Source: Anaerolineales bacterium (lineage in GTDB: Bacteria > Chloroflexota > Anaerolineae > Anaerolineales > DRMV01). From it: a stretch of 52,496 nucleotides of DNA. The stretch lies in the NCBI GenBank assembly GCA_027053355.1, contig JALUDX010000055.1, positions 1 to 52,496 on the forward strand, in the 5' to 3' direction. The position numbers and the translations under genes were made by a program. Shown here piece by piece: positions 36,493 through 39,400 of the stretch. Position 1 is the stretch's first letter, and every line of letters begins with the position of its first letter. The notes beneath the pieces were generated by a model that worked only from the letters and a program-made list of their open reading frames with translations, ran no database searches and was not told the origin of the DNA.

Positions 36493-39400
36493 TCAAAACA
36501 AGGGCAACTGCTGGGGGCCTTCTTCGCCTTTCTTTTGGCGAGGGGAACGGCGCTCCTGCACGGTGCGCAACACATGGCGCAGGTCTTGCAAAAAAGGCGA
36601 GGGCGGCAGGCGCAGGGTCTGGCCGTAGAGGCGGCGGCGCTGTGCGTGGCTCAGGTACAGCCGCCGGCCAGCGCGGGTGACGCCCACATAGAACAAGCGG
36701 CGCTCTTCGGCGAGGTCGGTTCCCGCGGCGTCGTCCCCGGCAGCACCTGTGAGCGCCGCGCGGCGGTAGGGCAGCAGGCCGTCTTCTAGGCCCACGATGA
36801 ACACCGCGGGGAACTCCAGACCTTTGGCCGCGTGCAGGGTGAGCAGGGTCACCCGGTCGGCGCGCGGGTCGTAGAAGTCGTTTTCCGCGGCCAGAGCCAC
36901 GCGGGTGAGGAAATCGCGCCAGGATTGGCCCCCGCGGGCGGCCTCGCGGGCGCGCTCGCGCAGCCAGGCTAAAGCCGGGTCGTCCGCGTCCAAGGGGGCC
37001 AGCAGCGCGTCCCAGGCCGCGGGCCAGTCGTGGGCGACCAAGGCTTCGGCCTGGGCCAGGGCTTCGGCTAAGGCCGCGGCGCGGCGGGCAGCCGCGGGGC
37101 GCAGGGAAGCGCTTTGCAGCGCACGGCGGAGCAGACGGGAGGCGGGGATCTCTCCCCACCCCCGCCTCGCTCCGCTCGGCTCCCCCTCCCCTCCCTTACC
37201 AAGGGAGGGGAGGGGGCTGGGGGGAGGGGAGAGATCCAACAGCGGCTCCACCAGCGCGTCCAACTTCAGGTGATGCAGCGCGGTCTCCCAGTGCAGTCCG
37301 GCGCGGGGGGTGAGCACCAGCCAGGCCAGGGCCAGCGCGGCCCGCACGGCCGGGCGCTGGCTCAGGGGCGCGTGGCCCCACACCTGGTAGGGTACGCCGG
37401 CCCGATCCAGGGCCTCGCGCAGGGCGGGCACCAAGGCGTGGGTGCGGTAGAGCACCGCGATGTCGCCAAAGGCAAAGCGTCCCTCGTCGATGCCGTCCAC
37501 CCGGCCTGTGTCCACGGAAAAGTAACTGGTGCCGCCCACCAGGCGCTCGATTTGGTGGACGACGTACTCGGCCTCGGCGCGGTCGCTGGCCGCGGTGTGC
37601 ACTTCCACCTGCACTTCTTCGGCGAAGGTGGCCAGCAGGTCGTGGGCCGCGGCCGAGGCCTGGCCCTGGAGGATGTCCTGCGCGGCCTGCAAGATGGCCG
37701 GCGCGGAGCGGTAGTTGCGGCGCAGGCGCACCACTTTGGCGGGCTGAAAATCCTGGGGGAAGGCGTGGAAGTAGCGGCTATCGGCCCCGCGAAAGCCGTA
37801 AATGGCCTGATCCGGGTCGCCGATGGCGCACAGATTGCTTTCGGGGCCCACCAGCAGGCGCAGCAGGCGGTATTGCACCGCGTTGATGTCCTGGTACTCG
37901 TCCACGGCCAGCCAGCGGTAGCGGGCCTGGAGTTCGGCGCGCACGTCGGGGTGTGCTTCCAGCAGGTGCACGGCCAGGGCCAGCAGGTCGCCGTAGTCCA
38001 CCGCGCCCGCGGCGCGCAGCCCGGCGTGGTAGGCGTCCCAAAGGGCCGGGGGGATGTCAGGAACCCTCTCCCCACCCCCCTCGCTCTCCCGCTGGCGGGA
38101 AAGGGGAGGGGGGAAGGCCGCGCCGAGCGCCTGCCTGAGCGGAGCGTAGCGAAGTCGAAGGGCGAGCGAGGCAGCGGCCGGGGGGATGTCGGGCGCCCTC
38201 TCCCTACCCCCCTCGCTCTCCCGCTGGCGGGAAAGGGGAGGGGGGAAGGCCGCGCCGAGCGCCTGCCTGAGCGGAGCGTAGCGAAGTCGAAGGGCGAGCG
38301 AGGCAGCGGCCAGGGGGGAGAGGTGAGGGTTACGCTTAGCCGCCTGGATGCGCTCGTAGAGATCGCGGCGGCCGCGGGCGTCCAGGTCGGGGGCCACGCG
38401 GCGCAGCACTTCCAGCGCGTCGTCGTCGGTGGCGATGACGAAGTCGGGGCTCAGGCCCAGGCGGTCGGCGTACGAACGCAGCAGCCCCGCGGCAAAGGCG
38501 TGGAAAGTAGCCACGGTGATGCCCCGCGCCACGTCTTCGCCCAGCCAGGCGGCCAGGCGCTGGCGCATTTCGTCCGCAGCGCGGTTGGTGAAGGTGATGG
38601 CCAGCAGGTTTTCGGGCTCAGCCCGACCCGCGCGCACCAGGTAGGCGAAGCGCGCGGTCAGGGTGCGGGTCTTGCCCGTGCCCGGCCCAGCCACGATGAG
38701 CAGATGGCGGTCGAGGGTGCGCACGGCCGCGCGCTGTTCGGGGTTCAGGGCGGTCAGGATGTCCGCGGCGGGGTCGTCGGGGGAAGGGACGTAAGCCGCG
38801 TCGGGTTCAGCCACAGCCGACGGGGACATGGATCGCGCCGCGGGCACCCCCACTTCCCCCGCCGCGGGTGGCGGCGCAGGCTGAGGCGCGCGGGCCACGG
38901 CTGGCGCTTCTTCCTCTTCGTCGGCCTGAGGGAACAGGGGCAGCGGGTTCTCCAGGCGCTCGGAGACGCCCTCAACGAAGACACGGATGACGCCGAACTC
39001 GCCATCGTAACCCGGCTCGACCAGCACTTCGCCGCGGCGCATCCGGCCGATGCCCTCGGCTAAGCGGGAGCCGGCCGCGCGGGCGATGTCTTCCAGGGGC
39101 AGGTCGAGCAGGATGGCGAATTCGGGGCCCAGGGCGGCCAGCAGGCGTTCGTACTCGCGCTGCACCCGCTTGCTGGTGGCGCTGCGCACGCCTAAGAACT
39201 CAGCCAGCACCTCGGGCAGGGGGATCAGGCTGTGGTAGGGCAGGGCATTGGGCTTGGCCGCGCCTTCGGGCCGGTCGGCTAAGGCTTCGACGCGGTGCAG
39301 CACGCCCACGGTGACGGGCCTGCCGCATACCGGGCACAGGCCGTTGTGGGCGCGGGTCTCAGCGGGCTTCCAGCGCACGCCGCACTTGCGGTGGCCGTCG

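Follow-up and report, generated by a model that had tools for sequence, protein, structure and literature searches.

Palindromic repeats lying in frame in a PHP–UvrD/PcrA-type helicase gene of an Anaerolineales bacterium: two candidate families of MITE-like elements

Introduction

Short palindromic repeats that occur both between genes and in frame within unrelated housekeeping genes are described, at least in the accounts cited here, as Rickettsia palindromic elements (RPEs; Ogata et al. 2000 Science, 2002; PMC10969869). [quoted passage not shown] A third group, the repetitive extragenic palindromes and their mosaic assemblies (REP/BIME) mobilised by RAYT transposases, consists of GTAG- or CGTC-tagged palindromes (PMC3733652). 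Here, we analyse a 52,496-nt stretch of DNA from an Anaerolineales bacterium (contig JALUDX010000055.1 of assembly GCA_027053355.1; the whole stretch is called the window below), in which an intact helicase gene carries two repeat-like segments, site i and site ii. An initial annotation had described both as hairpin elements inserted in frame, site i as a tandem of two 132-nt units and site ii as a nested palindrome, had drawn the parallel to RPEs, and had proposed that they are either tolerated surface loops or new peptide modules.

We consider it likely that two unrelated families of non-autonomous, MITE-like palindromic repeats colonised this helicase gene and persist there as in-frame insertions in dispensable loops.

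Results

The site ii element and its family

The nested palindrome at site ii is present as annotated: outer arms of 18 nt, 94% complementary, enclose a perfect 16-bp inner stem with a 3-nt loop (37182–37197 with 37201–37216). Folded as single-stranded DNA, the element reaches -41.7 kcal/mol (z = -6.7), and 0 of 200 shuffled sequences folded as well. It combines a constant hairpin (CCCCCTCCCCTCCCTT-NNN-AAGGGAGGGGAGGGGG) with one variable side module and GATC-tipped terminal inverted repeats (TIRs). Across the family, the termini GATCTC(T/A)CCCC(N)CCCCC, a near-constant inner hairpin and one or two variable GC hairpins make up elements of 89–105 nt, and the TIRs are conserved across 16 copies. 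Members of the family lie in the window and at the fetched loci L002–L004 and L007–L015.

A BLAST search of the fetched loci with the 92-nt element revealed four additional insertion points in orthologous helicase genes, each with an in-frame copy (Table 1); the copy just past motif I in L003 adds 33 residues, and this position is empty in the window, L001, L002 and L004. A pattern scan of Joint Genome Institute (JGI) metagenomes returned nine more copies, seven of them without a convincing spanning ORF and apparently intergenic in a lower-GC organism, and two in frame in orthologous UvrA-like genes that also bear a DUF559 domain. The L014 UvrA-like gene holds three in-frame family copies, and BLAST located an extra intergenic copy upstream of the PPDK gene in L015. 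In-frame insertion in intact genes was thus found for two genes of unrelated function, the helicase and a UvrA-like ABC ATPase, and the element recurs at 85–94% DNA identity at other gene sites, in an unrelated gene and between genes. K-mers of the inner hairpin reach 3 to ~190x the depth of its flanks in three vent metagenomes, with a wide variety of flanking sequences attached, indicating that the family is abundant in these communities. On sequence grounds, site ii is a well-preserved member of a mobile palindromic repeat family.

All three reading frames and both orientations are used among the insertions. The copies are free of stops in 3–6 of the 6 frames (most in 4 or more), since each arm consists solely of pyrimidines on one strand and of purines on the opposite strand, which leaves most frames stop-free.

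The UvrA-like ABC ATPase with its embedded DUF559 (Vsr-like endonuclease) domain lies at 4078–8022 (+) of L014 and at 11358–13441 (-) of L015. Both multiply-hit genes are DNA-repair genes, which may reflect coincidence or the tolerance of large multidomain proteins; large DNA-repair genes may also be preferred hosts.

The site i element and its intergenic relatives

The site i element, ~135 nt long, has the termini GCCCTC(A/T)CC...CCCCC and GGGGG...GGTGAGGG, an internal hairpin and the motif AGCGAAGTCGAAGGG. Aligned with three intergenic copies in the window (B-type elements), it has both termini, the linker and the 15-mer in common with them and differs in the inner hairpin. In site i and B-type elements alike, the terminal repeat GCCCTCACC..CCCCC pairs with GGGGG..GGTGAGGGC. 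The 15-mer AGCGAAGTCGAAGGG, which the initial annotation had reported as common to the 132-nt units and an intergenic B-type MITE, occurs five times in the window (9132, 12366, 18996, 38148 and 38280) against 0.16 expected, a count reached in 0 of 100 shuffles, and the B-type terminal motif occurs 12 times against 2.1 expected. The window contains three intergenic B-type copies and one genic copy; no larger unit bounded by the terminal motif was found in it. Repeated palindromic DNA with related intergenic copies was in this way borne out for both sites.

A strict scan for the B-type pattern in representative genome contigs, a set that apparently lacks the source genome, gave only two matches, in a Latescibacterota metagenome-assembled genome (MAG) and an Anaerolineae MAG. 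Composites at 141–274 of L005 (Latescibacterota MAG, Lake Baikal) and 5326–5447 of L006 (Anaerolineae MAG) share the same termini (GCCCTCACCC...GGGTGAGGGC) and the CCTGAGCGAAGTCGAAGGG motif, the former with a GTAG palindrome nested within it; the B-type architecture thus appears modular and not restricted to one phylum.

Could the segments instead be ordinary fast-evolving, low-complexity linkers, ancestral to the protein, whose palindromes arise from proline and glycine codon composition? The inserts are indeed rich in proline, glycine and serine and lie in variable loops, length varies in other loops of the helicase family as well, and the site i hairpin is at chance level (below). The recurrence of the same DNA at other gene sites, in an unrelated gene and between genes, in both orientations and three frames, rules against this, as do the z value of the site ii fold, the matches of the site i termini and 15-mer to intergenic B-type copies, and the 93% identity of the site ii element between the window and L003, which exceeds that of the flanking gene (72–84%). 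We regard the linker explanation as very improbable.

Anatomy of the site i tandem

Tandem Repeats Finder reported a period of 132 nt, 2.1 copies and 96% matches at 38044–38319, and a repeat search delimited two units (Table 1) that are 97% identical, with four clustered differences (38059/38062/38063/38073 versus 38191/38194/38195/38205). The intact 1240-residue ORF thus contains two near-identical units of 44 residues each, as annotated. Each unit begins in the host flank with GGCCGGGGGGATGTC... (encoding PDIPPA) and stops just short of the far terminal repeat, which occurs once and is not duplicated; the first 12 nt of this repeat are the microhomology partner of 38044–38055 and 38176–38187. 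The three boundaries around the units read GGCCGGGGGGA, GGCCGGGGGGA and GGCCAGGGGGGA, and together with the single far repeat they bear the marks of unequal exchange, or of slippage, at short direct repeats spaced by 132 nt rather than of a second transposition. As far as its boundaries tell, site i is one decayed MITE-like element followed by local tandem duplication through 11–12-nt microhomology, not two insertions. Of the proposal that the tandem hairpin units are inserted elements, the repeated palindromic DNA in frame stands; the units themselves comprise one element and its duplication, which includes ~5 host codons.

The orthologous locus L001 holds a complete site i element in single copy, with the inverted termini CCCTCACCTCTCCCCCC ... 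GGGGGGTGGGGTGAGGGC on the coding strand, and L003 carries the element at site i in the same orientation minus a 48-nt internal module. The hairpin that had been assigned to each 132-nt unit has decayed beyond statistical recognition: folded as DNA, the unit (z = -0.2) and the whole element (z = -1.1) do no better than shuffled sequences. The reading frame is kept, as annotated; the absence of stops is weak evidence, since the window, at 64% GC, has no stop in 51% of its 132-nt frames.

Table 1. Features of the helicase gene and of the two repeat families (window coordinates unless a locus is named).
Feature	Position	Strand	Description
Helicase host gene	36493–40215	minus	Intact 1240-residue ORF, PHP + UvrD/PcrA-type superfamily 1 (SF1) helicase
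Site ii element, residues 994–1023	37146–37237	minus	TIR 37146–37163; 17-nt asymmetric module 37164–37180; inner hairpin 37182–37216; TIR 37220–37237
Tandem unit 1, C-terminal-proximal copy, residues 680–723	38044–38175	minus	~5 host codons (PDIPPA) + element body, without far terminal repeat
Tandem unit 2, N-terminal-proximal copy, residues 636–679	38176–38307	minus	4 clustered differences from unit 1
Sole surviving site i terminal inverted repeat	38308–38330	minus	Plus strand GGCCAGGGGGGAGAGGTGAGGGT, encodes NPHLSPL
Intergenic B-type element	9056–9172	plus	Termini, linker and 15-mer as in site i; fold z = -6.6
Intergenic B-type element	12340–12456	minus	96% identical to 9056 copy
Intergenic B-type element	18971–19086	minus	92% identical to 9056 copy
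Further helicase copies of site ii family	L003 linker; L004 linker; L003 after motif I; L004 C-terminus		All in frame

Corroboration of the two-copy state

The two-copy state of site i is uncorroborated outside this assembly, since seven independent assemblies and the best-matching public run have one copy. In the cluster of the closest orthologue (P0001), 7/7 full-length members, all from independent assemblies, are single-copy, and the window's own helicase protein is recorded nowhere else. The sequencing run X1 contains 90% of the region's sampled words, the missing 10% being about the amount expected from the copy-2 stretch plus the site ii hairpin. An 815-nt Logan contig of this run, at depth 228, has 0 differences to the window except that precisely 132 nt are missing from it. 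At ≥ 99% identity, the variant letters of copy 2 occur in none of the X1 contigs; they were seen in no other dataset, and a search for runs with the copy junction found none. Runs X5, X8, X12 and X13 added nothing on copy number, and contigs matched to the 161-nt junction stretch gave nothing even in X1, so that this comparison is uninformative about copy number.

These observations would fit a true gene with one site i copy, the tandem having arisen in assembly, as an artefact or through the assembler's choice of a rare variant, and we give this somewhat less than an even chance. Against it, the four letters specific to copy 2 must originate in real reads, and the junction lies a 1-nt indel off the true left boundary, which would be hard for a de Bruijn graph to invent. 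Logan contigs, built at k = 31, reveal presence rather than absence and tend to collapse repeats; duplication by slippage between 11–12-nt direct repeats is, moreover, mechanistically ordinary.

X1 Logan contigs terminate in Nextera adaptor (CTGTCTCTTATACACATCT) exactly at the edge of the site ii hairpin (37161) and at 37734. Such ends represent read-through in the public assembly and are a reminder that the hairpin breaks short-k assemblies.

Distribution among orthologues

In an alignment of 24 sequences, the only members with an insert at site i are the window, P0001 (94% identical), P0002 and P0008. P0003–P0007 (74–80% identical) and all Caldilineae and Anaerolineae outgroups lack it and have the short loop AAKRG-DGDPAAIP-LWDAYH instead. 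A full-length site ii element occurs in the window, P0002 and P0003; P0001 and P0008 retain a short remnant, and P0004–P0007 and the outgroups have none. With a neighbour-joining tree of the form ((window, P0001), (P0002, P0003, P0004, P0008)), P0005, (P0006, P0007), both sites are patchy inside a young clade. The segments are therefore lineage-specific in-frame insertions, as had been proposed: orthologues at 74–80% identity and beyond lack them, and distant orthologues that carry them, which would have marked them as ancestral protein sequence, were not found in the alignment.

The protein flanks of site ii (window 37090–37290 compared with L001) diverge sharply, although the P0001 cluster is otherwise 94–95% identical: HHLKLDALVEPLL versus RRFRLEGLREALR on one side and PASRLLRRALQS versus ASPAALLSHAAAQ on the other. 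This looks like local divergence or a recombination patch around the element. In run X3, a commoner strain, ~92% identical, has 124 nt in place of the 172 nt at 37110–37283, another site ii allele.

Orientation flips

The plus strand of the window element matches the coding strand of L003 with 93% identity over 90 nt. The window gene being encoded on the minus strand, the 17-nt module stands on opposite sides of the hairpin in the two genes, which agree in the codon position and frame of the insertion. Opposite orientations at an identical site were found in orthologues of two genes, the helicase (window versus L003/L002) and the UvrA-like gene (L014 versus L015), the latter pair having two hairpins in reverse order at one site. 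A 198-nt contig of run X3 starts with the window's right flank (157 nt, 6 differences) and continues into the opposite end of the element, with TIR and module on the other strand. Because a k = 31 graph is unable to make such a join through an 18-nt repeat, this contig indicates either a flipped arrangement or a symmetric two-module variant. The X3 strain carrying this flipped-type join is ~96% identical to the window, and X1 contigs back the window's own orientation on the right side.

In-place inversion between the terminal repeats, re-templating from another copy in either orientation and independent insertion at a hot spot may each have caused the flips. Because one end is the inverted copy of the other, a flip or re-templating of the interior could occur without a change in length or frame. 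The site ii type of element might then be an invertible coding cassette that toggles the host protein between two loop peptides, an idea we hold to be unlikely. If the flips are in-place inversions, they would offer a simple DNA-level route to alternative protein loops.

The host protein and the predicted position of the inserts

The ATG at 40215 is the most plausible start codon within a longer ORF (36493–40665, minus strand). The 1240-residue protein consists of a PHP/TIGR00375-like N-terminal domain fused to a UvrD/PcrA-type helicase. A Pfam scan of its entire length gave helicase and PHP families only (UvrD-helicase, E = 1e-69, plus UvrD_C), with no RPE-type match; PcrA and UvrD were the best matches in a PDB sequence search (E = 9e-84 to PcrA). 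The AlphaFold2 model of residues 476–1240 is confident overall, with a predicted local distance difference test (pLDDT) score of 82 and a predicted template modelling (pTM) score of 0.83, and Foldseek placed UvrD, PcrA and Rep at the top of its matches (template modelling score, TM, ~0.7). The helicase motif residues are invariant columns in the orthologue alignment and the catalytic motifs are all intact; motifs I–VI and the four-subdomain fold (1A/1B/2A/2B) place the host protein among the SF1A helicases. The PHP and UvrD/PcrA fusion is common to thousands of proteins of Anaerolineae, Caldilineae and other Chloroflexota, the closest named relatives being Anaerolineaceae/Anaerolineales MAG proteins, and the sequencing runs that match the region best are hydrothermal-vent metagenomes.

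In the alignment with PcrA, site i is bracketed by residues 132 and 176, in accessory domain 1B, and site ii by residues 406 and 531, in accessory domain 2B, the domains being those of PcrA/UvrD structures. The pLDDT drops to 33–58 at site i and 50–67 at site ii, with flanks at roughly 75–97. Both inserts are accordingly predicted by the model to be floppy loops on non-catalytic subdomains, in agreement with the earlier suggestion of surface loops.

The suggestion of new peptide modules fared differently. The 44-residue site i peptide, compared with 5.8 billion proteins, gave two word-sharing candidates, neither significant; the 32-residue site ii peptide had 0 matches among 1.84 billion representatives, and a 43-residue version including flanks returned no candidate. 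Short low-complexity queries are weak, so that these null results argue only against a conserved, widely shared peptide. Still, neither peptide was seen to recur in other proteins, and the copies are read in differing frames and orientations, so that co-option into a protein module has no support.

Domains 1B and 2B of UvrD-family helicases regulate activity and partner binding, and a more general form of co-option would have the inserts act as flexible tethers or interaction peptides in these domains, or as DNA or RNA hairpins that modulate expression of the repair gene. Besides this regulatory location, repeated hits speak for it: there are seven copies in five orthologous helicase genes and none in ~73 kb of flanking DNA, an apparent enrichment that is biased because the loci were sampled via the helicase, and the UvrA-like repair gene has been hit as well. 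The lack of peptide conservation among copies, the empty peptide searches, the low model confidence at the inserts and the rapid turnover of the sites (full, flipped, remnant and empty among close relatives) argue the other way, and we think co-option distinctly unlikely.

Removal of the inserts on the way to the mature protein, in the manner of an intein, an intron or some other intervening sequence, is hardly credible. At 30–44 residues they are far under intein size and the peptides have no intein-like features, a search of the entire window against Rfam at gathering thresholds matched no intron or other RNA family, and the copies differ in reading frame. Degenerate remnants in orthologues are, in addition, still in frame, as expected of translated sequence under frame selection.

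A proposed history of the two insertions

The history that we favour, colonisation of the gene by two families of MITE-like repeats, would run as follows. Non-autonomous repeats would transpose, presumably in trans through a transposase, or be copied around the genome, and genic insertions would survive only with a length that is a multiple of three, no stop and a position in a dispensable loop, selection acting as the filter. A ~135-nt element would have inserted into a loop of domain 1B and later decayed. Then, in this assembly only, GGCCGGGGGGA of the host flank would have slipped on, or exchanged unequally with, GGCCAGGGGGGA at the beginning of the far terminal repeat, giving a second copy of 132 nt in tandem; these comprise ~5 host codons and the element without its far terminal repeat. 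The well-preserved site ii element would have been placed in a loop of domain 2B. The inserts, if translated, would add proline-, serine-, glycine- and arginine-rich and probably disordered loops, and the elements would afterwards decay (site i, and the site ii remnants of P0001 and P0008), be deleted, flip or be duplicated locally.

Several points weigh against this history. The window yielded neither a cognate transposase nor an insertion sequence whose terminal repeats match. When filled sites were compared with empty ones, in genes that are only 80–84% identical, no consistent direct repeat emerged, and a target-site duplication could not be delimited because the flanks have diverged and the GATC tips may belong to the TIR or represent a palindromic duplication. 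The patchy distribution of site i calls for loss, recombination or a second insertion. The site i hairpin is statistically like shuffled sequence, the two-copy state lacks corroboration, a search for RNA runs that contain the gene listed none, and translation of the inserts is something we infer.

Other repeats in the window

The intergenic DNA of this genome is unusually repeat-dense. Perfect 12–14-bp intergenic palindromes of the form GTAGGGGCG...CGCCCCTAC lie at 25056–25083, 25213–25240, 25269–25295 and 26948–26976; they look like GTAG-tagged REP sequences, a separate family, and would suggest a RAYT-type system in the genome. Short tandem arrays of an 8-nt unit (TGGTTGCY or its complement ACCAAGCA) stand at gene boundaries (19224–19271, 28024–28090, 36337–36381, 40223–40264 and 48101–48150), one of them directly upstream of the helicase ATG, where it overlaps the 3' end of the upstream ORF and encodes ...NQATKQPSNQ.... 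AT-richer intergenic repeats occur at 7023–7120, 12198–12295 and 31271–31368; at 21736–21802, 41370–41436 and 49965–50031; and at 21638–21728, 41264–41354 and 49878–49928. These AT-richer families have CACAGATT/CGCAGATT-type units and the GCCAAGATGACGCCAAGACCGCCAAGAAG motif.

Discussion

In-frame palindromic colonisation of essential-type genes is known mainly from Rickettsia and a few other lineages; the helicase gene described here extends the phenomenon, if our reading is right, to GC-rich, free-living, Chloroflexota-like vent bacteria. The empty, filled, flipped, decayed and possibly duplicated alleles of close relatives form a natural experiment on the gain and loss of loops through mobile DNA. 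For annotation, the lesson is that a proline- and glycine-rich "linker" in a MAG protein may have come from a repeat insertion; assembly at short k is also interrupted by such hairpins, as in the Logan contigs, which end at the inner stem.

Neither repeat family gave a match in Rfam, searched as above, nor did searches of the literature turn up a description. The RPE parallel that had been drawn is apt as an analogy only. Like RPEs, the elements are in-frame inserts at positions predicted to be fold-tolerant, and the host gene stays intact. There is no sequence relationship, the helicase peptides have no significant relatives, and the conserved peptide encoded by RPE copies has no counterpart here, where the insertions use three frames and two orientations and no peptide recurs. 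The settings differ too, with GC-rich elements bearing polypyrimidine/polypurine arms in Chloroflexota-like vent MAGs on one side and AT-rich, obligately intracellular Rickettsia on the other.

REP/BIME sequences are likewise short, GC-rich extragenic palindromes of high copy number. They consist of a single 20–40-nt palindrome, in contrast to the 90–135 nt with terminal inverted repeats enclosing inner hairpins seen here, and membership of that group was rejected, the ends being GATCTC... and GCCCTCACC... with no GTAG or CGTC tag. PARCEL elements resemble the present ones as dyad-symmetric coding DNA that spreads within and between genomes and yields similar peptides from either strand; they form tandem arrays of a 25-residue amphipathic domain in membrane-targeted ORFs, whereas the insertions here are single, dispersed, low-complexity loops in enzymes.

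The closest correspondence is with bacterial MITEs, which are ~100 nt long, multi-copy and mostly intergenic, with terminal inverted repeats, stable stem-loops and occasional in-frame copies. Both families agree with this pattern: the elements are 90–137 nt long, cannot code for a transposase, bear terminal inverted repeats and are dispersed in multiple copies, intergenic ones included. They differ from it in their modular build, a constant hairpin combined with one or two variable ones, and in the several independent in-frame insertions in one gene across close relatives. To a specialist in such elements, only the repeated hits in a single gene and the flips in orientation would come as a surprise.

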